Part shown: one piece after another, positions 7,301 to 18,518 of the stretch | Position numbering within the stretch: position 1 is the first letter of the stretch | Layout of the letters: every line of letters starts with the position of its first letter | NCBI GenBank assembly: GCA_963810935.1 | Contig: CAWEPK010000009.1 | Location: forward strand, 96,001 to 160,000 | Reading direction: 5' to 3' | Origin: an uncultured delta proteobacterium | GTDB lineage: Bacteria; Desulfobacterota; Syntrophorhabdia; Syntrophorhabdales; WCHB1-27 | DNA length: 64,000 nucleotides | Translations under genes and position numbers: made by a program | The notes under the pieces: generated by a model | The model's database searches: none | The model's input: only the letters and a program-made list of their open reading frames with translations | What the model was told of the DNA's origin: nothing

Positions 7301-8092
7301 TTACTCGCCTTCCACGACGCCGGCGTCGTATTTTTCTTCAAGCACGCTCTCGTCGATGAAAGGCTTGGGCCCTTCTTTTTCGTCTTCCTTACCCTGGAAT
7401 TCCTCTACATAAAGCGCCCTGCCTTCGAGCACCGCGTCGGCGATCTTCGACGTGATCAGCTTGATAGCCCGTATCGCGTCGTCGTTCCCCGGGATGATGT
7501 AATCGATGTCGTCCGGGTCGCAGTTCGTGTCTACGATGCCTACCGTCGGTATGCCGAGCTTCTTTGCCTCGTTGACCGCGATATATTCTTTCTTCGGGTC
7601 CACTATGTAGATAGCGCCGGGCAGCCTGTCCATGTTTTTTATGCCGCCGAGGTGCCTTTCGAGCTTCACTATCTCGCGGTCTATGCTCAGGGCCTCCTTC
7701 TTCGGAAGGACCTTGAAGATATCGCTGTTCTTCAGCTCCTCGTACTTCCGCAGCCTGTCGATGCTCTTGTCGATGGTCTGGTAGTTAGTCAGCGTGCCGC
7801 CGAGCCACCTGACGTTCACGTGGAAGGCCGAACAACGCCGGGCCTCCTCGACGATGGCCTCCTGCGCCTGCTTTTTTGTCCCGACAAAAAGAACGTATTC
7901 GTTCCGGGAAGCGACCTCTTTGACGAAGTTGTAAGCCTCCTTGAACATCTTGAGCGTCTTTTGCAGGTCGATGATGTAGATGCCGTTCCTTGCCCCGAAG
8001 ATGTAAGGCTTCATCTTGGGGTTCCAGCGTTTTGTCTGGTGTCCGAAATGGACACCGGCTTCGAGCAATTGTTTAATGGTTAAATTCGACAT
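7301..8092 (-). CDS. rpsB: 30S ribosomal protein S2
   Basis: [43 protein letters not shown] before ATG at 8092. Confidence 0.98.
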
Positions 8093-8099
8093 CGGACCT

Positions 8100-8185
8100 C
8101 CTGGTTTTATCTTCCGCCTTTCGCGCTTCGGCCCAAGACACGAAAAGATTGTGCACCCTTGGGCCGATTGAAAGACGTGCAGAAT
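8100..8185 (-). promoter_or_regulatory. Structured rpsB 5' leader (putative S2 autoregulatory element)
   Basis: Perfect 10-bp inverted repeat TCGGCCCAAG (8128-8137) / CTTGGGCCGA (8158-8167) with outer pairing, directly upstream of the rpsB RBS. Confidence 0.6.
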
Positions 8186-8355
8186 AAATACAACGTTCAG
8201 TATACGACAAAAAAGGGCCTTTCTCAAGAAGAATTAGGCCGGGCCGGCCGTTACCGGTATGCAAAATAAAACAGTCGCCCGCATTCCCAGGCGCGGACAA
8301 ACTGCCCCAAGGGAGGCGAATAATGAAAAGTTTTGACATTCAGGACACTTGTGCC

Positions 8356-8384
8356 TTGAACCTTAACCGGAACAAAACTATATT
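8356..8384 (+). promoter_or_regulatory. Putative sigma70-type promoter of the DUF5132/HMA_2/ATPase operon
   Basis: TTGAAC-17 nt-TATATT about 40 nt upstream of the first CDS. Confidence 0.4.
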
Positions 8385-8424
8385 TAACGAATGGGAGTTT
8401 TCCAACTAACCTGGGGGTGTAAAC

Positions 8425-8691
8425 GTGGCTTGGCTCAAAGGTAACATCATGACGGCATTAGCAATCGGAATAGGCTCCGCAGTACTCGCGCCGTTGGTAA
8501 CGCCTGTCCTGTCGAAGGCCGCAAAGCCTCTCGCGAAAGCAGCCATAAAAGGAGGCATCTCCCTCCTCGAGGCGGGTAAAGAAAAGTTCGCCGAGATGCA
8601 TGAGGTCATGGACGACCTCATGGCCGAGGCGAAGGCGGAGATAGTTGCCGAGCAGGCCGCGGCGATAGAAGACCAGGGTAAGGACGCGTAG
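8425..8691 (+). CDS. DUF5132-type small membrane protein (FezA/MamC-like)
   Basis: Hydrophobic Gly/Ala-rich N-terminus (ALAIGIGSAVLAP), KPLAKAAIKGG, acidic helical tail DDLMAEAKAE; GGGGG RBS and GTG start. Confidence 0.75.
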   Translation: MAWLKGNIMTALAIGIGSAVLAPLVTPVLSKAAKPLAKAAIKGGISLLEAGKEKFAEMHEVMDDLMAEAKAEIVAEQAAAIEDQGKDA

Positions 8692-8698
8692 GCCGACC

Positions 8699-9199
8699 AT
8701 GATACCGGATGCTTTTATTACACACCGAACGGCAGGCAGGCTGCGGCTGCGGGTCCCATCCAGGAGAGGAAACCTTGTATATTTCGCTTCCGTGCGCGAC
8801 GCGCTCTCAAGCGTAAAAGGCGTGGACAGCATCGAAGTGTCGCCCATGACGGGCAGTATCCTCGTGCGCATGAGCGCGCCGTTCGAAGCCATCGACGCTG
8901 CGCGCCCGGCTGACCTTTTCAACGTCGTCGAGGCGCCTCAAGCGGAGGAGGGAGCGACCGGCCTCCAGACTTCCGTCTCGGCCCTCTTCGGCTCCATTGA
9001 CGACCGCATAAAATCCGCTACGGGAAAAGGCGTAGACCTCGCCGGTATAGCCTTTCTGGGCCTAGTGGCAGCGGGAATCTATCAGATAGCGCGAGGCAAT
9101 TTTACGGCCCCGGCCTGGTACACCGCTTTCTGGTACGCCTTCGGGGTATTCGGCAAGTCGGGCAAGAAAAACGGGGAAGGCGAAAAGAGCCCGACATAG
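8699..9199 (+). CDS. HMA_2-domain membrane protein (FezC-like)
   Basis: N-terminal HRTAGRLRLR...VSPMTGSILV HMA_2 signature without CxxC; C-terminal TM region GIYQIARG...PAWYTAFWYA. Confidence 0.75.
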   Translation: MIPDAFITHRTAGRLRLRVPSRRGNLVYFASVRDALSSVKGVDSIEVSPMTGSILVRMSAPFEAIDAARPADLFNVVEAPQAEEGATGLQTSVSALFGSIDDRIKSATGKGVDLAGIAFLGLVAAGIYQIARGNFTAPAWYTAFWYAFGVFGKSGKKNGEGEKSPT

Positions 9200-9258
9200 T
9201 AAAGAAGAACAAGCCGCCATGCTGCAAATAAATGAATGAAGTGAAGGAGGAACCTAAA

Positions 9259-9951
9259 ATGGAACCGAAGACAGAGGCAGGCGAAGCCAAAGACAAGATC
9301 GAAAACGATTTGGGCCGGGCAGGCACGGCAGTGAAGGAAGGCGTGGTCCGCAGCCTTAAGGGCCTTAACGAGATAGAGGCGGATATCGTAAGCCTGGTAA
9401 GGAATACCGTAGCAGACAGCCTTAAGCTCACCTCCGATACGGCGGGCATGAGCCTCAACCTTACGACGGAGGTCGTCAAAGGTGCGATAAGGGCGACCGA
9501 AGAGGTAGGCACGGGCCTAATCCTCAGCACCAAGAGCGTCACCAAGGGCATCATCATGGGCTTTGGCGACGTCGGCGGGGACGTGGTGGGCATTGCCAGC
9601 CAGACCGTTAAAGGCGCGGTCAAAGGGGCCGCAGAGGTCGGCGCCGACGTATCCATGGTCGCAAGGCGCGCCGTAGACGGGGCGATAGAGGCAGGAAAAG
9701 AGGTCGGGGTCAACGCGGAGGAGATGGCCAGGGTGGCTATATCAGGCGCAGTCGAGGCAGCCGGGACCATCGGCGTGACGGCAGTCAAGGCGGTCAGAGA
9801 GATGCTGATGGGCGTGGCCGAAGGCGTGCGGGACTTCGTAGGGACGCTGCTCGCCGCCAAACCGGCTGCGGCCGGCGCAGCCAAAGAAGAGAGCGGGACA
9901 CCAGAGGAAAGACCTTCCCCGCCCGAGCAGCGACGGAGGTCGAAAGAGTAG
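9259..9951 (+). CDS. Hypothetical protein with tandem 22-aa amphipathic repeats
   Basis: AAGGAGG RBS before ATG 9259; five consecutive 22-aa units of the pattern V(K/D/S)GA(I/V)xxxxEVG. Confidence 0.8.
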   Translation: MEPKTEAGEAKDKIENDLGRAGTAVKEGVVRSLKGLNEIEADIVSLVRNTVADSLKLTSDTAGMSLNLTTEVVKGAIRATEEVGTGLILSTKSVTKGIIMGFGDVGGDVVGIASQTVKGAVKGAAEVGADVSMVARRAVDGAIEAGKEVGVNAEEMARVAISGAVEAAGTIGVTAVKAVREMLMGVAEGVRDFVGTLLAAKPAAAGAAKEESGTPEERPSPPEQRRRSKE

Positions 9952-9954
9952 TCC

Positions 9955-12900
9955 TTGGTCCGGATAGTTCACGCCGCTGTCAGCGGAAGGGTGCGCCTCA
10001 AGGTAGACGGCCTTCACGGGTCTCACGAGCTTAAGAAGTATCTGGAAGAAGGGCTCTCGAAGCGCGACGACGTAACCCACGTCTTTGCAAGCCCCCTTAC
10101 CGGAAACGTCCTAGTTCTTTATTCCGATCCCCGGACGCCGTCCGATATCAAAAACGAGCTTCACGCGCTCCTGCCCCTGAAAGACGGAGCGGAAAGGGCC
10201 GATGACGCCCGGCCGAAGAAGGCCGTCATACGCGAAGACCGGGTCCGTCCAGGCAACTTGAGGAAGCGCCTGGTCAGGGCAAAAGATACGCCCCCCCAGG
10301 TGCTCTGGCACATGCGGCAGCCGGCGGAGGCCGCCGTCGCCTTCGGCGCGGACTGCGAGACAGGGCTCGCCCTGGAGGCATACGGAGCGAGCCTGAAGCG
10401 CTTCGGTCCCAACCTGCTGCCGGAAGCGGTCCCGCGCTCCGGCTGGTCCATCTTCCTCGAACAGTTCAAAAGCCTTCCCGTGCTGCTTCTCGGGGTCGCA
10501 GCCGCAGTCTCGGTCTTCACCGGGGGCCTCGCGGACGCTGTAGTCATCATCAGCGTGGTAGGAATCAACGCAGCCATCGGTTACGTGACCGAAAGCAAAT
10601 CGGAAAAGATCATCCGCTCCCTGAAGAGCCTTGTGCGCCCGACAGCCCTCGTAAGGCGCGCTGGCGAGCTCGTCCAGGCGAACGTCGAAGACGTGGCGCC
10701 CGGCGACCTCCTGGTGCTCAGGCCCGGCGCCTACGTCGCGGCGGACGCGAGGCTCCTCCTCGCGCAGCACCTTAGCGTTGACGAGTCAGCCCTTACCGGC
10801 GAGAGCATGCCGGTCCACAAGACGACGGACCTCCTCGACGAGGCGGGTCTTTCGCTGGCCGACAGGACGAACATGGTGTACATGGGGACCCTGGTAACGG
10901 GCGGCCAGGGCCTCGCGGTCGTTGTTGCAACCGGCCCTTACACCGAGATCGGCCGCATCCAGATAATGGTGGGCGAGGCAAGCACCCCCGCCACACCTTT
11001 AGAGCAACAGCTCGACCGTATGGGATCGAAGCTCGCAATATTGAGCGCGGCCGTGTGCGCAGGTGTTTTCGTTGTGGGCCTTTTGCGCGGCTACGGGTTC
11101 GTCCGTATGCTCAAGTCGTGCATCTCCCTTGCAGTCGCGGCGGTGCCTGAGGGCCTCCCGGCCGTTGCCACCACCACCCTCGCCATCGGCATGAAGAGGA
11201 TGCGCGGGCATCATGTTCTCATCAGGCGCCTCGGGGCCATCGAAGCCCTCGGCTCCGTCCAGACCATATGCCTCGACAAGACAGGCACACTGACCCTCAA
11301 CAGGATGACGGTGACGGCCGTCTACACGGGCGAACGCCTGATGGATGTAGCGGAAGGCAGGTTCGTCTCCGAGGCAGGGGCGGCCGACCCGTATGCCTGC
11401 CCCGAGCTGTTGATGCTCCTCCACGTCGGCGCCCTCTGCAATGAAAGCGAGATATTCGGCTCAAACGGGACTTTTACCGTAACAGGCTCGCCTACCGAAA
11501 ACGCCCTCATCAACGTCGCGCTGGCAGCAGGCATCGATATACGGGGCTTAAGGGCAAGCTTTCCGCTCATGAATATCATCCACAGGTCGGAAACGAGGAA
11601 CCTGATGGCGACCGTCCACTCGACGAGCGACAACGGCAAATGTCTCCTCGCGATGAAGGGGAGCCCGCCGGAAGTGCTGGCCGGCTGCACCTGGTACATG
11701 AAGGACGGAAAGCGCCTCCCCCTGTCTGATGAGGTGAGGGACGAGATACAGACGGCCAACGAGGAGATGGCCGGCCAGGGCCTGCGCGCCCTCGGCATGG
11801 CGCACGCGGTCTCCGACAGCAAGCTGGTCCTGATGGAGAACGGCGACATCACGGTGAAGGACCTGACGTGGCTCGGCATAACGGGCATGACCGATCCCGT
11901 CAGGCACGGCGTAAAAGACCTCATCGCGGGCTTCCACAGGGCAGGCATAGACACGGTCATGATCACGGGAGACCAGAGCGCCACCGCCTATGCGGTGGGA
12001 AAGGAGCTCGACCTCGCAGGCGGCGAAGATATCCGGATCCTCGATTCGCGCCACCTCGCGGAGATCCAGCCGGAGGTGCTGAAAGGCCTTGCCAGGGGAC
12101 TCCACGTATTCGCGCGGGTCAGCCCGGCCCATAAGCTCCAGATCGTGCAGACGCTCCAGGATGGGGGCAAGGTCGTGGGCATGACGGGGGACGGCATCAA
12201 TGACGGCCCTGCCCTGAAGGCTGCGGCGATAGGCATTGCTATGGGGCATACGGGTACGGACGTCGCGCGCGAGGTCGCCGACGTAGTGCTCGAAGACGAC
12301 AACCTGGAGACCATGCTGATCGCCGTGAGCGAGGGGCGCACCATATACAACAATATCCGGAAATCCCTACATTACCTGCTCTCCACGAACATGAGCGAGA
12401 TCATAGTAACGTCCGTCTCGATGACGGCGGGGCTCGGAGAGCCGCTAACGCCCATGCAGTTCCTCTGGATCAACCTCGTATCCGATATCTTCCCGGGCCT
12501 GGCCCTCGCCCTCGAGCCGCCCGAGCCCGACGTCCTCCTCCGGCCCCCAAGGGACCCTGCGGAGGAGATACTGCAACCTGTCCGGCTCAAAAAGATGTTG
12601 AGGGAGGCAGCCGTCCTTTCCGCAGGCTCGCTCGGGGCATACGGGTACGGCCTGTCCCGCTACGGACAGGGGCCGGCCGCGGGCACCATGGCGTTCCTCA
12701 GCCTCACTATAAGCCAGCTCCTGCACGCGCTCACGTGCCGCTCGGAAAACAGGACGGTTTTCTCAGGCGAAAGGCAGGCGCCGAACCGCTACCTGACCGG
12801 GGCCGTCGCCGGCACGTTCCTGCTTCAGGGGGCCGCGATAGCCGTGCCGGGCCTGCGCCGCCTGCTCGGCATCAGCCGCTTGGGGCTCGTGGACGGCCTG

Positions 12901-12975
12901 GTCGCCGGCGGGGGCGCCGTTCTGCCCTTCTTCGTCAATGAAGCGCTTAAAAAGTCCAGGGGAGGCGCAGCTTGA
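9955..12975 (+). CDS. P2A-type (Ca2+/Mn2+-like) P-type ATPase with an N-terminal HMA_2 domain
   Basis: TGES, VAAVPEGL, DKTGTLT, MITGD, GDGINDGPALK, M5 STNMSE, M6 WINLVSD; N-terminus VHAAVSGRVRLKV...SPLTGNVLV. Confidence 0.92.
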   Translation: MVRIVHAAVSGRVRLKVDGLHGSHELKKYLEEGLSKRDDVTHVFASPLTGNVLVLYSDPRTPSDIKNELHALLPLKDGAERADDARPKKAVIREDRVRPGNLRKRLVRAKDTPPQVLWHMRQPAEAAVAFGADCETGLALEAYGASLKRFGPNLLPEAVPRSGWSIFLEQFKSLPVLLLGVAAAVSVFTGGLADAVVIISVVGINAAIGYVTESKSEKIIRSLKSLVRPTALVRRAGELVQANVEDVAPGDLLVLRPGAYVAADARLLLAQHLSVDESALTGESMPVHKTTDLLDEAGLSLADRTNMVYMGTLVTGGQGLAVVVATGPYTEIGRIQIMVGEASTPATPLEQQLDRMGSKLAILSAAVCAGVFVVGLLRGYGFVRMLKSCISLAVAAVPEGLPAVATTTLAIGMKRMRGHHVLIRRLGAIEALGSVQTICLDKTGTLTLNRMTVTAVYTGERLMDVAEGRFVSEAGAADPYACPELLMLLHVGALCNESEIFGSNGTFTVTGSPTENALINVALAAGIDIRGLRASFPLMNIIHRSETRNLMATVHSTSDNGKCLLAMKGSPPEVLAGCTWYMKDGKRLPLSDEVRDEIQTANEEMAGQGLRALGMAHAVSDSKLVLMENGDITVKDLTWLGITGMTDPVRHGVKDLIAGFHRAGIDTVMITGDQSATAYAVGKELDLAGGEDIRILDSRHLAEIQPEVLKGLARGLHVFARVSPAHKLQIVQTLQDGGKVVGMTGDGINDGPALKAAAIGIAMGHTGTDVAREVADVVLEDDNLETMLIAVSEGRTIYNNIRKSLHYLLSTNMSEIIVTSVSMTAGLGEPLTPMQFLWINLVSDIFPGLALALEPPEPDVLLRPPRDPAEEILQPVRLKKMLREAAVLSAGSLGAYGYGLSRYGQGPAAGTMAFLSLTISQLLHALTCRSENRTVFSGERQAPNRYLTGAVAGTFLLQGAAIAVPGLRRLLGISRLGLVDGLVAGGGAVLPFFVNEALKKSRGGAA

Positions 12976-14162
12976 ACAAGCACTTCGTATTTTCTTCCGA
13001 ATCGGTGACCGAAGGACACCCCGACAAGCTGTGCGACCAGATCAGCGACGCTTTCGTGGACCACATACTCCGGCGCGACCCGTACGCGCGCGTCGTCGCA
13101 GAGTGCGCGATATCGAACGCCATCGTTTTTATAGCGGTCCGCTTCGACAGCGCCGCCTCCGTCGATTTCCCCTACATTGCAAGGGAAGTGATCGACCAGA
13201 TTGGATATACGCACGCGGAGTTCAACTCGAAGACGTGCAGCGTAGTTACGAGCCTCCGCGAGATGCCTGCCGACGCTTACAGCCGCTTCGACGAGAGAAA
13301 CCTCACGGACGCAGAGATCGATCGCATTGTGGCCCGCAACCAGGTGACCGTCTTCGGTTTTGCATGCACCCAGACTCCAGCGTTCATGCCTTTGCCCATC
13401 TGGCTCGCCCACAAGCTGTCACGCAGGCTCACGTCGGTCCGCCTGCAGAACAGGCTCACGGACCTCGGGCCGGACGGTTGGACGCAGGTGGGCGTAGAGT
13501 ACGAGGACCGCAAGCCGAGCCGCATCCATAGCATGACGGTCATCGCGAGCACTACGCGGCAGGAGGTGACGCTTAAGACCCTGCACGAGATGATCATGGA
13601 GGAAGTGATCAAGCCCGTTTTCACCGACGAGACCTTCAGGCCGGATGAAAAGACGCGCATTTTCATAAACCCGGACGGCCTCTTTTACGGCGGCGGCCCG
13701 TCCGTCCACAGCGGTCTCACGGGTAGGAAGAACGCAATCGATACGTACGGCGAGTACTCGCGCCACAGCGGCGCCGCATTAAGCGGCAAGGACCCGCTGC
13801 GGATCGACCGCTCCGGGGCATACGCCGCGCGGTACGCCGCAAAGAACGTAGTGGCCGCCGGGTTGGCAGAGGAGTGTGAGGTTACTTTGAGCTACACCAT
13901 AGGGCTCGCGCAGCCCGTGAGCATACAGGTGGAGACCTTCGGCACGGGCAAGCTGTCGGACGATGATATCGTCGCCCTTGTCGGCCGCCATATCGATTTC
14001 CGTCCCGCCGCGGTCCTGCGGCAGTTCAACCTCCGCTATCTCCCGTCAACGGTCAAGGGCGGCTTCTACCGCCGCCTGGCCGCTTACGGACACGTAGGGC
14101 GCATGGATATAGGCCTTCCCTGGGAGGTAACGGACAGGGCGCGCCTCCTCCGGTCGGGCTGA
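12972..14162 (+). CDS. Divergent methionine adenosyltransferase (MetK) paralogue
   Basis: SESVTEGHPDK, GLTGRK, SGKD..IDRS, AYAARY and AAYGH kept; GAGDQG replaced by VARNQV; TTG start overlaps the ATPase stop. Confidence 0.88.
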   Translation: MNKHFVFSSESVTEGHPDKLCDQISDAFVDHILRRDPYARVVAECAISNAIVFIAVRFDSAASVDFPYIAREVIDQIGYTHAEFNSKTCSVVTSLREMPADAYSRFDERNLTDAEIDRIVARNQVTVFGFACTQTPAFMPLPIWLAHKLSRRLTSVRLQNRLTDLGPDGWTQVGVEYEDRKPSRIHSMTVIASTTRQEVTLKTLHEMIMEEVIKPVFTDETFRPDEKTRIFINPDGLFYGGGPSVHSGLTGRKNAIDTYGEYSRHSGAALSGKDPLRIDRSGAYAARYAAKNVVAAGLAEECEVTLSYTIGLAQPVSIQVETFGTGKLSDDDIVALVGRHIDFRPAAVLRQFNLRYLPSTVKGGFYRRLAAYGHVGRMDIGLPWEVTDRARLLRSG

Positions 14163-14194
14163 CGACATTTCCACAGCACGCGAGGTTTTAAGGT

Positions 14195-15256
14195 TTGAGC
14201 CAAGAGGAGCAGATCCCTAAAATTACGAGATCGGCCGAGTTCGGCTACGAGCAGGAGCGCTCCCTGAAGAGGATGAAGCTCTTCGCTACGGCCCTTCTCG
14301 TCCTTATGGCCGTTATTTATTGCATAAGCCGCATCCTTTTGCCGCGATATCCTTTTCTCGGCTTCGTCGCGGCTTTCAGCGAGGCAGGAACCGTAGGCGC
14401 CCTTGCCGATTGGTTCGCCGTCGTGGCGCTCTTCCGCCATCCACTGAACCTGCCCATCCCCCGGACCGGGGTTATCCCGCGCAACAGGGACAGGATAGGC
14501 GAGAGCCTGGCCCGTTTCTTCAACGTGAACTTCCTGACGAAAGACCTCCTGGAGAAGAAAATGGCCTCCGTGGACCTGGCGGGCCTTCTGGCCGCCTGGC
14601 TCGCAGACGAGCGGAACGCCCAGCTCATTGCGCGGACCGCGGCCGAATACGCCCCTTCCCTGCTTCAGAACAAATGTGAAGAAAAACATGACGCCGAGCC
14701 CGCTGCCGGCCGGCCCGAAAAAGGACTTGCCCACTTCTTAGGCAGCGCGACAGAGGCAGACAGCAAGCAGACGTCCATGCGAAGCGCCGCCTTTCGCTTC
14801 CTCTCCGGTCTCGACCGCATGGGGCTTTCTCTCTACGACCGTTTGCTCGCCCCGGTCGGCCGCGCTGTATCCGGGTTCTACGACGGCGGGCTGCGCCGCA
14901 AGATCGGTGAGAAACTCCTCGAAGAGCTGAGCAACCCGGACTCCGAGCTTGTGCGCCAGGCAGCAGACTTTATCAAGAACGCAGGGCAGGAGGCGATAAG
15001 GGACAACGATCTCAGGGAAAGGATCAACAAAGGTCTGCGCGCATGGATATCGGAGGCAGTCGAAGAGAATAAAGAGCTTTTTACTGTCTTCATATCGGAT
15101 ACGGTCAGGAAATGGGACCCCGTAGCTACCAGCAGGCGGATCGAGCTGCACGTGGGCAAGGACCTGCAATGGATAAGGATAAACGGCACCATCGTAGGCG
15201 GGCTCGCCGGGCTCCTTATTTACCTCTTCACTTTTTTATTGCGGGGCATTCAATAA
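14195..15256 (+). CDS. DUF445 family membrane protein
   Basis: EAGTVGALADWFAVVALFRHP, TGVIPRNRDRIG, VGKDLQWIRINGTIVGG. Confidence 0.9.
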   Translation: MSQEEQIPKITRSAEFGYEQERSLKRMKLFATALLVLMAVIYCISRILLPRYPFLGFVAAFSEAGTVGALADWFAVVALFRHPLNLPIPRTGVIPRNRDRIGESLARFFNVNFLTKDLLEKKMASVDLAGLLAAWLADERNAQLIARTAAEYAPSLLQNKCEEKHDAEPAAGRPEKGLAHFLGSATEADSKQTSMRSAAFRFLSGLDRMGLSLYDRLLAPVGRAVSGFYDGGLRRKIGEKLLEELSNPDSELVRQAADFIKNAGQEAIRDNDLRERINKGLRAWISEAVEENKELFTVFISDTVRKWDPVATSRRIELHVGKDLQWIRINGTIVGGLAGLLIYLFTFLLRGIQ

Positions 15257-15275
15257 CGCGGGGAAATGCAGGTTC

Positions 15276-15584
15276 CTATATGAAGGCGGCGATCAGGGAG
15301 AGGACTTTCCCGGCCGCCTCGTGGATATACTGGTCGTTGGTAATCGCCTTGGACGGATCGAAGTATCCCACGCGCACGAGGACCGAGAGGATCTCGTCCC
15401 TCTTCGCCTTTTTCGGGTCGTAGTTGACCAGGCAGCTTCCCGTCCTGGTATTCACTGCGACGCTTGCCACGCCGCTTATCGTCTGGAGAAGACCCTCGAC
15501 CGCGCAGGCCGCCTCGCTATTGTTCTTCATGAAAGGCGTCATTATTCTCAGTCGTCCGGGCAGATCATGCACGTAATGGCTCAT
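15276..15584 (-). CDS. Stand-alone HMA_2-domain protein
   Basis: YVHDLPGRLRI...VNTRTGSCLVNYDP. Confidence 0.8.
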   Translation of the reverse strand: MSHYVHDLPGRLRIMTPFMKNNSEAACAVEGLLQTISGVASVAVNTRTGSCLVNYDPKKAKRDEILSVLVRVGYFDPSKAITNDQYIHEAAGKVLSLIAAFI

Positions 15585-15587
15585 GCT

Positions 15588-15920
15588 CTACTCTCCTTCT
15601 TCAGGCGTTGTCCTCTCTTCTATTTTTGCTTTCACGTACGTGCGGCAATCGGGATAACGGCTGCACCTGAATACCGCGTTGCCGTCTTTTTTTCTCTTGA
15701 ACAGGTGGGTGATTCCCCCGCAGGCGGGGCAGTCGGGCCTTATCCCCGGGCTGCGCCTCTCGCTGCCCGGTATGAACTGCCGGTTGCACATCATGCAGAT
15801 GTAGCGCTGCCGGCTCCTGGCCCATCCGTATTTATATATTGCCCGCGATCCGCACGAAGGACAGCTTACCGCGTTCTGCCCTTCCTCTCCGTTTTGGCCG
15901 TCATGTAGTTCCTGTTGCAT
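15588..15920 (-). CDS. Double zinc-ribbon protein (IS1 InsA-like N-terminus plus topoisomerase C4-type zinc finger)
   Basis: CPSC..YKYG..RQRYICMMC then CPAC..FRCSRYPDC. Confidence 0.7.
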   Translation of the reverse strand: MQQELHDGQNGEEGQNAVSCPSCGSRAIYKYGWARSRQRYICMMCNRQFIPGSERRSPGIRPDCPACGGITHLFKRKKDGNAVFRCSRYPDCRTYVKAKIEERTTPEEGE

Positions 15921-16084
15921 ACATATCAGTCTATATGCGGTTTGTTAATCCTTTATTTCCCGTATGTTAATTTTTAGTAAACTCGCACGTCCCGACACAT
16001 TTGCGGAGTGTGTGCACAATGAGACGGGCAGACTATTGTCCTCTGTTGGGAAAGGTTCTTGCGTCAGAAGGCTGCGTATGTTTC

Positions 16085-16405
16085 TTACACGACGACTTTA
16101 AGGACGCCCGTAGCGGACTCGCAGGCCATTTCAATGCATTCCTCAAGATAATCATCGGGCGTTCTTGCTTGTGAATGGTTGAAAAAGCCGCTTTCGTCCA
16201 GTACTCGCAGGAGCTTGTCGTGATCGAGCTTCGCGGGGTCGTAAAGGATCAGAGCGCTGCCGATCTCCGGCCTTAGCTTGACCGAAGAGACGCCCTCGAT
16301 GAGTGCGATGAAGTCATGGAAGTGATCTATATTCGGACTGCCCGTCTTCAAGGCAGGGCTCTCGATCCTGAGCCGTCCCGGCGTGTCGGCCATATAGTAG
16401 TTCAT
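16085..16405 (-). CDS. Stand-alone HMA_2-domain protein
   Basis: YMADTPGRLRI...GSALILYDP; GGAGG RBS; paralogous to 15276-15584. Confidence 0.75.
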   Translation of the reverse strand: MNYYMADTPGRLRIESPALKTGSPNIDHFHDFIALIEGVSSVKLRPEIGSALILYDPAKLDHDKLLRVLDESGFFNHSQARTPDDYLEECIEMACESATGVLKVVV

Positions 16406-16494
16406 TATATCCCTCCTTGCTGTCCGTCGTACGGCCCGTTCCTATTATAATACGGCGCGACGGCAGGTCCCCGGCCTTTTTCGCTGACGGCCCC

Positions 16495-17127
16495 TTAAAC
16501 TTTCTTTGCGTAGATGTTCTTGCAGATATTGACGCCGGCCACTGCGTCGGGAGCATAATAGTCGGCGCCCGTAAATGCCTGCACCTGCTCGTTGCACGGC
16601 GCCCCGCCGATGACGATCTTCACACGGTCTCGCAGGCCCGCCCTGCCCACTTCGTCGACCACGTTCTTCATCTCGGGATACGTCAGGTTGAGGAGCGCGC
16701 TCAGGCCGAGGACTGCCGCCCCGCTCTCCTTAAGGGCGGACACGAACTTATCGGCTGAAACGTTCACCCCCAGGTCGATCACCTCGAAGCCCGAACCGCG
16801 AAGCAGAGTGACGGCGATGTTCTTCCCGATATCATGGATGTCGCCTTTTACCGTCCCTATGACGACCTTGCCGGCCGACGGCTCCCCGGCAGCATTCTGG
16901 AGAAGGGGCTCGAGGCGCTTCATCACGTTCTTCAATATCTCGGCCGAGAAGATGAGCTGGCTGATGAAATACCGGCAGCTCGAAAAAAGCTCGCCCACCT
17001 CTACCATGCCGCGGTTGCACGCCTTCACGATCTCGATGGCCGGCACTCCCTGTGCGATCTTTTCCTCCACCAGACTGTAAACGCGCTTTTCTTCGAGGTC
17101 CCGCAGTGCCTTGACAAGGTCTTCCAT
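16495..17127 (-). CDS. Corrinoid (B12-binding) protein, MtbC/MtaC family
   Basis: B12-binding cap plus GTVKGDIHDIGKN, DLGVNV, GLSALL, IGGAP; GGAGGGAG RBS before ATG 17127. Confidence 0.92.
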   Translation of the reverse strand: MEDLVKALRDLEEKRVYSLVEEKIAQGVPAIEIVKACNRGMVEVGELFSSCRYFISQLIFSAEILKNVMKRLEPLLQNAAGEPSAGKVVIGTVKGDIHDIGKNIAVTLLRGSGFEVIDLGVNVSADKFVSALKESGAAVLGLSALLNLTYPEMKNVVDEVGRAGLRDRVKIVIGGAPCNEQVQAFTGADYYAPDAVAGVNICKNIYAKKV

Positions 17128-17153
17128 GATGTCTCCCTCCTCTCTGTAACGCT

Positions 17154-18518
17154 CTACAGAACCCACTGCCACAGCCAGACGTATGCCATGGCCTCCAGAC
17201 TTTCCCAGGGTTTGCGGATAAGGCCCTCGTCGCCCATGACTCCGCCTGACTCCGCCTGCCTCACATGCCACGGCGTCACCATCCTCGGGAAGGAAAACCC
17301 CTCGATCCCGCCTTTCGGGGGCGTTTTCGGCCGTGCCTTTGTACCGGCGTCGTAAACGCCGTATTCGCAGACGGCGTCTATCATCGCCCGGAAGTTCTCA
17401 GGCTTCGCCGTATAAGGGAAGTTGCAGCCGCCGCTTACGATGTAGCCGCCGCCTTTACCTACTGTCTCGCAGAGCAACTTTACCTGTTTGCGCATCTCTT
17501 CCGGCGTGCCGAGGATGAACTGCGAATCCTTGATGCCGCCCGCCAGGCACTGGTGGTGGCCTATCTCCTCCTTGGCCTTGAAGATATCGCCCTCGTTGTC
17601 GATGTCGCAAAGCACCTTGCCTTTCGGCAGCTCGAGCATGTGGCGCCAGTGCATCCCCCAATCGCCTTCGAGGTACGCCCTGACCGTGTGCCCGGCGCCT
17701 ATTAGTATCTCCATCACTTTTTTGAAAGAGGGCCAGTAGAACTGCTCGAACTGGTCGGGAGACAAAAAGCAGGCCTTATGGGTCGGCACGAAGATGGGCC
17801 AACGCTTAAGCGGGTCCGCCAGGGCCAGGGCTATGTTGGCCATCTCGCCGACCAGGGAATCGCACGCAGCTATCACCTTTTCCGGCTGGCGGTAGCAATC
17901 TAGGAAAATCCCGGTCAGGCCGCGCATCGCGTCTGCGAGCACGTCGAAGGGCGCCAGGAAAAAGCCGGCCATCGGCTGCGGCATGCCTGCTTCGTTCTGC
18001 AGGACGGCTGTCCGGTTCCGCATCACCTGGCCCGCCATAGCCTGCGCCATCCCGCCTTTGAGGAACGCCATGTACGACCGGATGGACCCGCGCTCGCCGA
18101 ACTCGCCGAATATCCTCGGCAGCCATCTTTCGAAGAGGAATTCGACGGGCCTTTCGATCAGGATGTCATATTCGTCCGCCTTCATATATTCTTCTTCGAC
18201 AAACTGGAACTGGTCGCCGGGCGGCAGGTCGCGGCCGGGCAGCTTATACGTCTTCAGCCCCACGGCGTCGAATAGCGGCCCGTAAATACGGTTATTCCTC
18301 AGTACGTCGACTTCCGGGAAATCACGGCAGAAGGCAAGCTCGGCCTGTAGCCACTTTTCGGGGTCGTAGATCGTTTCCTGGTTGGTGTTGCCTGAGTAGA
18401 CCTCGGCGAAATAGTTGCTCCCCGGGGCAATCGGTATGCGGTCGGTCGGCTCCAGGGCGATGGCGGCCTGGTAGCGGCCAAGCCTCTGCTCGAAAAGCTC
18501 GTTCATCTGAGCCGTCAT
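17154..18518 (-). CDS. Uroporphyrinogen decarboxylase-family protein (probable corrinoid-dependent methyltransferase)
   Basis: EPTDRIP, APFDVLADAMRG, FEQFYWP, GTPEEM, GGGYIVSGGC, ENFRAMID; adjacent to a corrinoid protein. Confidence 0.85.
   Translation of the reverse strand: MTAQMNELFEQRLGRYQAAIALEPTDRIPIAPGSNYFAEVYSGNTNQETIYDPEKWLQAELAFCRDFPEVDVLRNNRIYGPLFDAVGLKTYKLPGRDLPPGDQFQFVEEEYMKADEYDILIERPVEFLFERWLPRIFGEFGERGSIRSYMAFLKGGMAQAMAGQVMRNRTAVLQNEAGMPQPMAGFFLAPFDVLADAMRGLTGIFLDCYRQPEKVIAACDSLVGEMANIALALADPLKRWPIFVPTHKACFLSPDQFEQFYWPSFKKVMEILIGAGHTVRAYLEGDWGMHWRHMLELPKGKVLCDIDNEGDIFKAKEEIGHHQCLAGGIKDSQFILGTPEEMRKQVKLLCETVGKGGGYIVSGGCNFPYTAKPENFRAMIDAVCEYGVYDAGTKARPKTPPKGGIEGFSFPRMVTPWHVRQAESGGVMGDEGLIRKPWESLEAMAYVWLWQWVL

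Follow-up and report, generated by a model that had tools for sequence, protein, structure and literature searches.

Introduction

Ferrosome (fez) clusters, the calcyanin (ccyA) neighborhood of Microcystis and the PacL1-CtpC efflux system are the closest described systems to the gene cluster considered here, which occupies positions 8,425 to 16,405 of a 64,000-nucleotide stretch of contig CAWEPK010000009.1 (hereafter the window) from an uncultured delta proteobacterium of the Syntrophorhabdales. This cluster combines a P2A-type P-type ATPase fused to an HMA_2 domain, a paralogue of MetK, the methionine adenosyltransferase (MAT) that makes S-adenosylmethionine (SAM), and a set of small helper proteins. 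The hallmark of ferrosomes is FezB with its D[Y/F]SCA and HNxxT motifs, accompanied by GxxxG and R-rich partners (bioRxiv 10.1101/2020.01.10.902569). In Microcystis, genes for DUF5132 and CoBaHMA proteins flank, and are co-expressed with, that of calcyanin, a marker of intracellular CaCO3 (bioRxiv 10.1101/2024.07.07.602159); the CoBaHMA domain is equivalent to Pfam HMA_2 (PMC8890360; 10.64898/2025.12.07.689555). PacL1, a DUF1490 protein, attaches to the N-terminus of its pump and assembles into foci, or efflux platforms, in the plasma membrane, and DUF6110 proteins accompany P1B-6 pumps (PMC9374683).

The present cluster exhibits similarities to fez clusters (FezA, FezB, FezC) in its small membrane protein, its HMA_2/R-rich membrane and soluble proteins and the R-rich N-terminus of its pump, but there are also clear differences: the pump is a ten-helix P2A Ca-type ATPase, unlike the P1B-6 pump of fez; a MetK paralogue, a 22-mer solenoid and a zinc ribbon are present; and the context is Pho-type, whereas that of fez is iron-linked. 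With the ccyA neighborhood of Microcystis PCC 7806 it shares DUF5132 and CoBaHMA proteins beside a calcium transporter, although the transporter there is a Ca/H exchanger rather than a P-type pump, and MetK goes unmentioned for ccyA in the accessible portions of the reports (bioRxiv 10.1101/2024.07.07.602159; PMC8890360). As in PacL1-CtpC, a small single-span protein with a Glu/Ala-rich helix is encoded before a P-type pump; in that system, however, the pump is a P1B zinc pump serving efflux at the plasma membrane, with no MAT partner (PMC9374683), and the likeness is one of features only.

Overall, as far as tested, the cluster is neither a ferrosome nor a canonical-MetK locus, nor is it a calcyanin locus, and by analogy it appears to operate as a pump on a scaffold, akin to fez and PacL but containing new parts. 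Calcium (or manganese) and phosphate are probably handled jointly by it, in a manner so far undescribed. The reading that we prefer, to which we assign a probability of roughly 0.38, is that a scaffolded Ca/Mn pump would deposit its cation with phosphate in a membrane compartment, that the MetK paralogue would cleave inorganic phosphate chains, and that a Pho-induced accessory unit would retune the module. No published description of the cluster was found in the literature searched, although the CoBaHMA survey of Gaschignard et al. (2024) may already mention the pump fusion. A term search of a 2026 ferrosome preprint found no mention of phosphate supply.

Conservation of the Pump and the MetK Paralogue

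Two locus sets were used, one from a scan of GTDB genomes with the MetK paralogue, from whose 398 confirmed stretches the best 80 were retained, and one from a scan of metagenomes with the pump, which had 317 confirmed and contributed 76 loci. Both sets consist of the closest relatives and are mutually non-independent. The end of the P2A pump lies at most 700 bp from the metK start in all 78 genome loci with at least 300 bp upstream (2 loci dropped), and a metK-like gene stands directly behind the pump in 68 of the 71 metagenome loci that extend 600 bp or more beyond it (5 dropped). In contrast, a metK or HMA_2 gene within 1.5 kb was found for none of 28 ordinary P2 pumps of the phylum (30 control loci, 2 dropped as cluster members). 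The conserved core is the HMA_2-fused P2A pump plus the MetK paralogue.

Carriers span Syntrophorhabdales, Nitrospirota, Desulfobaccales, Brocadiales, Acidoferrales, several cyanobacteria, Azotobacter and Thermithiobacillus, and cultured ones include Chlorogloeopsis fritschii PCC 6912, Fischerella thermalis PCC 7521, Azotobacter bryophylli and Thermithiobacillus tepidarius. The combination of P2A ATPase, divergent metK and DUF5132 to which the preliminary description had drawn attention is therefore conserved, in that the neighborhood survey finds the core pair across several phyla. The remaining genes are less constant. BLASTP across 82 loci, including two of the window's own genome, finds DUF5132 in 52 and the HMA_2-membrane protein in 47, and tblastn finds the repeat protein in 43/80 genome and 46/76 metagenome loci, the zinc ribbon in 26/80 and 32/76, and DUF445 in 14/80 and 9/76; DUF445 is a lineage-specific accessory outside the conserved core. 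A single sample of 151 genomes from the phylum contains 14 with the paralogue and 14 with a DUF5132 protein over the cut-off, 13 genomes having both. Within the window's family, 13 of 19 genomes have the paralogue, and in 12 of these 13 there is a further, weaker match that scores as canonical metK does, the residues having been checked in the window's own genome only.

Several additional observations concern the surroundings of the pair. One cyanobacterial genome holds two separate pump-paralogue pairs (L080, L274). A small DUF3562 gene recurs in 23 loci (e.g., L016:9262-9525), often immediately behind the MetK paralogue; the window's genome lacks a match to it. In 12 of 80 loci (e.g., L081:1178-1870), mostly of the Desulfobaccales type, the cluster has an MntP-family (manganese efflux) gene close by, which hints at Mn. 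P1B ATPases with an (A/T)CPC motif are present as additional pumps at L072:9458-11761, L074:9425-11635, L082:1195-3435 and in L162, with HMA_2 shown for L072, L074 and L082; these pumps recall FezH by resemblance only. Another cluster locus contains a P1B-type homologue with an N-terminal HMA_2 and a DYC motif that lacks DKTGT (L051:2160-4325), possibly a pseudo-pump linking the two systems. Plasmid searches turned up nothing at the level of the paralogue (best match 50%) and nothing for DUF5132. Three apparent pump-MAT fusion proteins (P0272, P0273, P0318) were treated as deletions or misassemblies rather than functional fusions, because the C-terminal membrane part of the pump is missing, the junctions differ and each occurs on one contig.

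The P2A Pump

The best-scoring profiles for the pump are P2A equivalogs, yet its scores lie under both cut-offs, and its nearest solved relatives, lmo0841 (LMCA1), SPCA1 and SERCA, are all Ca2+-ATPases. With these it shares the phosphorylation, actuator and M4-M6 ion-binding motifs: DKTGT, TGES and PEGL are intact in the window pump and in 64/64 family proteins, and E399, N812, E815, N840, S/T843 and D844 are kept in all 64. P2A-site residues of this type are indicative of Ca2+ or Mn2+, and the conserved site points to one of these as the ion that the pump would transport. The earlier assignment of the pump to the P2A/Ca type, not to P1B-6, is thus borne out by profile scores, PEGL, solved relatives and ion-site residues. 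A Gln in M8 of the cluster pump is equally present in 12 of the 28 ordinary pumps.

Unlike its P2A relatives, the cluster pump has an N-terminal HMA_2 domain and a changed nucleotide site. Arg544 aligns with the Phe of 'PFDSDRK' in the N domain of lmo0841; Arg occupies this adenine-site position in 64/64 family pumps, as against Phe in 27 of 28 ordinary ones, and a pattern search finds it in 113 of 120 database homologues. The residue that follows is mostly Asn (N 46, L 8 and P 4 being the top three), where 20 of the 28 ordinary pumps have Lys, and TGDQ replaces TGDH. In SERCA, Phe487 and Arg560 anchor the nucleotide (PMC3203174; PMC5259720). The cluster pump retains K568, R611 and the GxxTE motif. 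We take Arg544 to occupy the position of SERCA Phe487, and K568, R611 and GxxTE presumably correspond to SERCA K515, R560 and E442. Because Arg is itself capable of stacking on adenine, ATP would remain the likeliest energy source of the pump. These features define a P2A subfamily with a changed nucleotide site, which is directly assayable. The changed site, together with the link to the phosphate regulon set out below, goes beyond the preliminary description.

The MetK Paralogue

The paralogue is a three-domain MAT homologue (TIGR01034, 377 bits against a cut-off of 309), and the genome also encodes a canonical metK, 43% identical to it, in which the canonical residues are present. In a quick tree of 76 selected rows, the MAT subfamily forms one side of a branch with a Shimodaira-Hasegawa-like approximate likelihood-ratio support of 100. 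In E. coli MAT, methionine is contacted by Glu55, Gln98, Asp238 and Lys269, adenine is stacked on Phe230, and His14 is the catalytic acid (PMC3853416; PMC1282579). Comparison of 81 paralogues with 93 canonical-type representatives (of 110 full-length sequences among the best 150 matches) shows how far the subfamily departs from this arrangement. The E55 position is R in 76/81 paralogues (E in 79/93 canonical-type sequences), Q98 is mostly replaced by L, Y or M (Q in 80/93), D238 is H in 81/81 (D in 87/93), and K269 is R in 81/81 (K in 91/93); D118 is also mostly lost. The window protein, with R57, M98, H246 and R277 at the first four of these positions, lacks the methionine-binding set. The claim that this MetK is non-canonical is therefore upheld, both by the replacements in the methionine pocket and by the separate clade.

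In contrast to the methionine pocket, much of the remaining active site is kept. H14, D16, K17, E42, K245 and K265 are invariant in the 81 paralogues, R244 and D271 are each present in 79/81, and the ribose-binding D163 in 80/81. K165 is K in 67/81 and W in 13/81; the window protein, which has W here, retains the catalytic His and the metal/triphosphate set with this one exception. Seventeen distant representatives, down to approximately 41% identity, share the H/R pattern, and H14, D16, K17, R244 and K245 are present in all 17. Among the distant members of the subfamily, P0009, P0013, P0017-P0020, P0029, P0119 and P0138 have also lost K165 and the adenine Phe. The replacements E55R, D238H and K269R, together with the invariant H14, D16, K17, K245 and K265, suggest that the acidic amino-group pocket has turned basic while the metal/phosphate site has been retained. 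MAT carries out a tripolyphosphatase half-reaction, on which Taylor and Markham (1999, 2000) have reportedly worked, and the E. coli K165A variant is said to accelerate it. A multi-phylum MAT subfamily with a basic methionine pocket is thus defined, whose members are currently annotated as SAM synthetase and are directly assayable.

The paralogue might instead be a ligand-sensing regulatory subunit that binds ATP, pyro- or polyphosphate and docks on the cytosolic head of the pump, with Arg544 as part of the control; either location of the pump would fit. The strictly adjacent, often overlapping genes argue for such a subunit, as do the correlated pairwise identities of pump and paralogue (Spearman 0.76 over 64 loci, a value inflated by kinship), and the loss of K165 and E8 in the most distant paralogues suggests decaying catalysis. 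However, the invariance of His14, Asp16, Lys17, Lys245 and Lys265 in 81/81 paralogues, and of H14, D16, K17, R244 and K245 in 17/17 distant ones, amounts to a residue set that would exceed the usual needs of bare binding, and we consider a purely sensory role unlikely.

The adenine contacts are altered in both partners; in the MAT, 53/81 paralogues and 2/17 distant members retain F230, as against 82/93 canonical-type sequences. This leads to a bolder idea, namely that the pump is energized by a non-ATP donor that the paralogue supplies or trims, whether tripolyphosphate, a polyphosphate end, or an adenosyl-phosphate from MAT chemistry in which an anion replaces methionine. In its favor, pump and MAT have changed their adenine contacts independently and both gained basic residues, the Phe-to-Arg change of the pump being as widespread as described above at a residue, Phe487, that anchors the nucleotide in SERCA (PMC3203174; PMC5259720). 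The kept K568, R611 and GxxTE, the ability of Arg to serve adenine itself, the ribose-binding D163 of the MAT and the persistence of the Arg in pumps that have no adjacent paralogue all speak against this idea. Moreover, no P-type pump is known to us that runs on a donor other than ATP, and we regard the idea as improbable. Equally improbable is its fuller form, a Ca/Mn-phosphate organelle whose P-type pump is driven or gated by inorganic (poly)phosphate or by a non-standard adenosyl-phosphate from a repurposed SAM synthetase. If true, a P-type pump would use a dedicated phosphoryl donor other than ATP, and an enzyme of the MAT fold would catalyze a new reaction.

Helper Proteins and Their Relation to Known Systems

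The FezB signature D[Y/F]SCA/HNxxT is found in none of the nine DKTGT-bearing pumps of the genome (93% complete), and for this reason the cluster does not appear to be a ferrosome. Its helper proteins are nevertheless related to those of fez. Among 30 P1B loci from the phylum, 4 bear DYSCA and HNxxT; the DUF5132-family profile of the cluster matches the small protein before FezB in 4/4 of these loci (E 1e-5 to 1e-6, other open reading frames at E >1), and the HMA profile matches a protein downstream of FezB in 2/4. The fez-type homology that had been proposed for the helper set is thus supported, and the small proteins, rather than being without relatives, are homologous to FezB-adjacent proteins. 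A Pfam check against PF17195 and PF19991 agrees, with DUF5132 well over its cut-off (Table 1) and HMA_2 above its cut-off in three proteins and borderline at the pump N-terminus (27.7 bits in one search and 30.7 in another, cut-off 30). Like a fez locus, the cluster encodes R-rich/HMA proteins and an R-rich pump N-terminus, with four GRxR HMA_2 domains, and its DUF5132 protein is a small hydrophobic protein of the GxxxG or Gxxx[A/S] kind: it has AxxxG/GxxxA without GxxxG, and of the 60 homologues in its family cluster 38 were scored, 30 of them with GxxxG.

These similarities make it conceivable, although highly improbable, that the cluster is a true ferrosome variant in which iron is stored through a P2A pump. 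Besides the helper homology to FezB loci, the lack of any other pump with the FezB signature in the genome and the many hosts from groups known as anaerobes would fit. The pump itself, however, has Ca-type residues instead of D[Y/F]SCA and HNxxT, the recurrent neighbor families identified (19 representatives scanned with Pfam) include no Feo, Fur or ferritin-like family, and the regulatory signal indicates phosphate.

Three cyanobacterial loci (L270, L271 and L272) combine a P1B pump of related motif, a DUF5132 protein 48-49% identical to that of the window and an HMA_2-membrane protein. They lie near a dnaA-like gene and, with a P1B DF/LxTG motif and proteins carrying several HMA_2 domains, represent an uncharacterized fez-like cluster.

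By features, the nearest other families of DUF5132 are DUF6110 and DUF1490 (0.89), a comparison that serves as a lead only. The PacL arrangement proper, a DUF1490 or DUF6110 protein before a P1B-6-like pump, is not the one present, since the small protein scores as DUF5132 and the pump is P2A. A rough pattern scan, unvalidated on known calcyanin, found no calcyanin-type glycine zipper in the genome or loci. Because the same protein types serve calcyanin loci and plasma-membrane efflux platforms, the helper set is no proof of an organelle; by analogy, it would mark a clustered pump. Of the preliminary proposal of an organelle built on a fez scaffold, the scaffold homology, the P2A pump and the non-canonical MetK stand, whereas the compartment does not follow, given the same helpers in calcyanin loci and the PacL likeness.

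The helper set is also where an efflux platform of the PacL1-CtpC kind has to be weighed, in which DUF5132 and HMA_2 proteins would stabilize or cluster a plasma-membrane Ca2+/Mn2+ exporter, with no storage, and export would spare cytoplasmic phosphate from precipitation. The feature neighbors of DUF5132, the MntP-family gene in 12/80 loci and the closest solved pump, lmo0841, a bacterial Ca2+-ATPase that we take to be an exporter, favor this possibility, and PacL1 offers the precedent of a helper that binds the N-terminus of its pump in plasma-membrane foci (PMC9374683). Yet it leaves the near-constant MetK paralogue and the changed nucleotide site unexplained, and ordinary P2A exporters do without all such partners. 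A platform of this kind is a possible but not a likely explanation. An iron pump, calcyanin and, here, a calcium-type pump are all accompanied by a single helper kit (DUF5132-type plus CoBaHMA), which makes the choice between storage organelle and efflux platform a testable question.

Regulation

Upstream of the main operon lies a motif, AGGYRRRTAATKRAA, which occurs in 37 of 71 distinct upstream regions (mean of shuffles, 0.1) and was picked by eye from the same set on which it was counted. The copy at 8314-8328 is the top-scoring site of its own genome. Of the 10 exact matches in 10 other genomes, 7 are at the promoter of the cluster operon and 3 at apparent gene starts. The zinc-ribbon protein is a candidate for the regulator that would act at this motif. 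The motif is common to Syntrophorhabdales-type and Nitrospirota-type genomes, occasionally in two copies. A leader peptide starting from it was rejected, as the ATG is missing in L003, L011 and L027. Low-depth contigs of the metatranscriptome X1 over parts of the operon were set aside as expression evidence because contigs cannot show transcription.

A Pho-type direct-repeat array precedes the zinc-ribbon gene. The half-site pattern was set from the pstS and phoB-like promoters of the same genome, where half-sites recur at an 11-bp period, together with the consensus. Before the zinc-ribbon gene, 55 distinct regions hold a pair at period 11 in 42 cases and at period 22 in 43, with 0-3 at other periods. 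Given these 42/55 regions, as against sparse and mostly minus-strand pairs before the main operon, the Pho signal belongs mainly to the zinc-ribbon and free HMA_2 genes. Direct Pho activation of the window's main operon found no support, its promoter having no Pho-type pair. Genes resembling pst, phoH or phoB are present in 31 of the 74 loci of at least 15 kb, a count that has no background control.

Proposed Mechanism

In the preferred reading, the module is a calcium/manganese counterpart of the ferrosome, made from homologous helper proteins. The DUF5132 and HMA_2-membrane proteins, whose homology is described above, would gather the pump in a membrane patch, probably via its N-terminal HMA_2, a clustering role modeled on PacL1-CtpC and fez. 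The P2A pump, with its conserved transport residues, would then carry Ca2+ or Mn2+ from the cytoplasm into the compartment. The MetK paralogue, presumably no longer making SAM from methionine, would use its retained metal/triphosphate site and basic pocket to bind and cleave an inorganic phosphate chain by the MAT tripolyphosphatase half-reaction, an activity to which the residue pattern points, and would so supply or recover phosphate for the deposit. The 22-mer solenoid, which is dispensable, may coat or organize the membrane patch. Finally, upon phosphate starvation PhoB would induce the zinc-ribbon and free HMA_2 proteins, thereby retuning the module, for example to release the store; the repeat arrays are present, and they suggest both this regulator and this effect. 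With fez and calcyanin loci, two of the three known uses of the helper scaffold accompany mineral stores. The location of the pump and the role of the paralogue are separate questions.

Several points weigh against this reading. The system is known here from genes alone, not from observed inclusions, ions or enzyme activities. The metal- and triphosphate-binding roles of the retained MAT residues other than His14 are our assumption. The window's main promoter has no Pho-type pair, the arrays of its relatives' main operons are mostly on the opposite strand (minus in 21 and plus in 6 of 71 regions), and no phosphate transporter is constant among the recurrent cluster neighbors examined. Moreover, 3 of 71 loci, including two near-copies, have the pump but no paralogue next to it; genome G080 has the pump, DUF5132 and HMA_2 genes, and the paralogue was not found there; and within 8 kb many cyanobacterial loci consist of pump and paralogue alone. 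The third known use of a scaffold of this type, PacL1-CtpC, is a plasma-membrane efflux platform (PMC9374683). In addition, archaeal MATs bind the methionine carboxylate by other residues while retaining the Asp238 equivalent (PMC3853416), so that an altered pocket is no proof of lost SAM synthesis.

Organization of the Cluster and Further Features

The features are listed in Table 1. Every one of the nine open reading frames was found where it had been placed, and Pfam assigns the four HMA_2 domains that had been noted, with GRxR near the N-terminus in 4/4. On the plus strand, the intergenic gaps in gene order are 7, 32, 3, -4 and 32 bp. The convergent HMA_2/zinc-ribbon/HMA_2 genes exist as described, but not as a single unit: 164 bp containing the Pho-type array set the 16085-16405 gene apart, and the minus-strand genes look like two transcription units rather than one. 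No MamC similarity emerged from the Pfam search of the small proteins, the only test of MamC made, and no Rfam family was found within 7900-16700.

Table 1. Genes and candidate regulatory elements of the cluster (window coordinates)
Feature	Position	Strand	Remarks
Operon-specific motif AGGYRRRTAATKRAA, likely transcription-factor site upstream of promoter	8314..8328	+	Motif counts
Candidate sigma-70-like promoter, TTGAAC-17-TATATT	8356..8384	+	Consensus match only; 5 in region vs 2.4 expected
DUF5132 small membrane protein, 88 aa	8425..8691	+	Pfam 49.3 bits, cut-off 25
HMA_2 (CoBaHMA) domain plus C-terminal membrane segment, 166 aa, FezC-like architecture	8699..9199	+	Pfam above cut-off
22-residue repeat protein, 239 aa, predicted helical solenoid, no Pfam family	9232..9951	+	
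P2A-type (Ca/Mn-type) P-type ATPase with N-terminal HMA_2, 1006 aa	9955..12975	+	
MetK/MAT paralogue, 396 aa, three MAT domains, distinct clade	12972..14162	+	
DUF445 membrane protein, 353 aa, accessory, lineage-restricted	14195..15256	+	Pfam
Stand-alone HMA_2 (CoBaHMA) protein, 102 aa	15276..15584	-	Pfam above cut-off
Double zinc-ribbon protein, 110 aa, accessory	15588..15920	-	Pfam, two zinc ribbons
Pho-type direct-repeat array before zinc-ribbon gene	15944..15982	-	Pair of ATTAAC half-sites 22 bp apart; degenerate units precede and separate them
Second stand-alone HMA_2 protein, 106 aa, probably on a transcript separate from the zinc-ribbon unit	16085..16405	-	Pfam above cut-off

The 22-residue period claimed for the repeat protein is confirmed by autocorrelation, with peaks at 22, 44 and 11. 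Its model is a solenoid of 22-residue helices with a mean predicted local confidence (pLDDT) of 67 overall and 80-89 in residues 101-190. Foldseek gave no match at E 0.001, the top structural matches are designed helical repeats (best Z 14.9, root-mean-square deviation 2.5, 136 residues aligned), with no natural one of note, and an Atlas search returned unnamed clusters only. The predicted helical-repeat arrangement is a common one and would give no functional clue.

The cluster holds 4 of the 6 HMA_2 matches of the whole genome. Elsewhere in the genome there are a second DUF5132 gene (G000:C10:183060-183359, minus strand), a further stand-alone HMA_2 gene (G000:C7:14255-14587, minus) and a second HMA_2-membrane gene (G000:C17:231528-232274, minus), none with an adjoining pump in the stretch examined. 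Directly upstream of the last HMA_2 gene of the cluster, window positions 16495-18518 on the minus strand encode a corrinoid protein and a URO-D/MtaA-family methyltransferase, which fall outside the set of recurrent neighbors.

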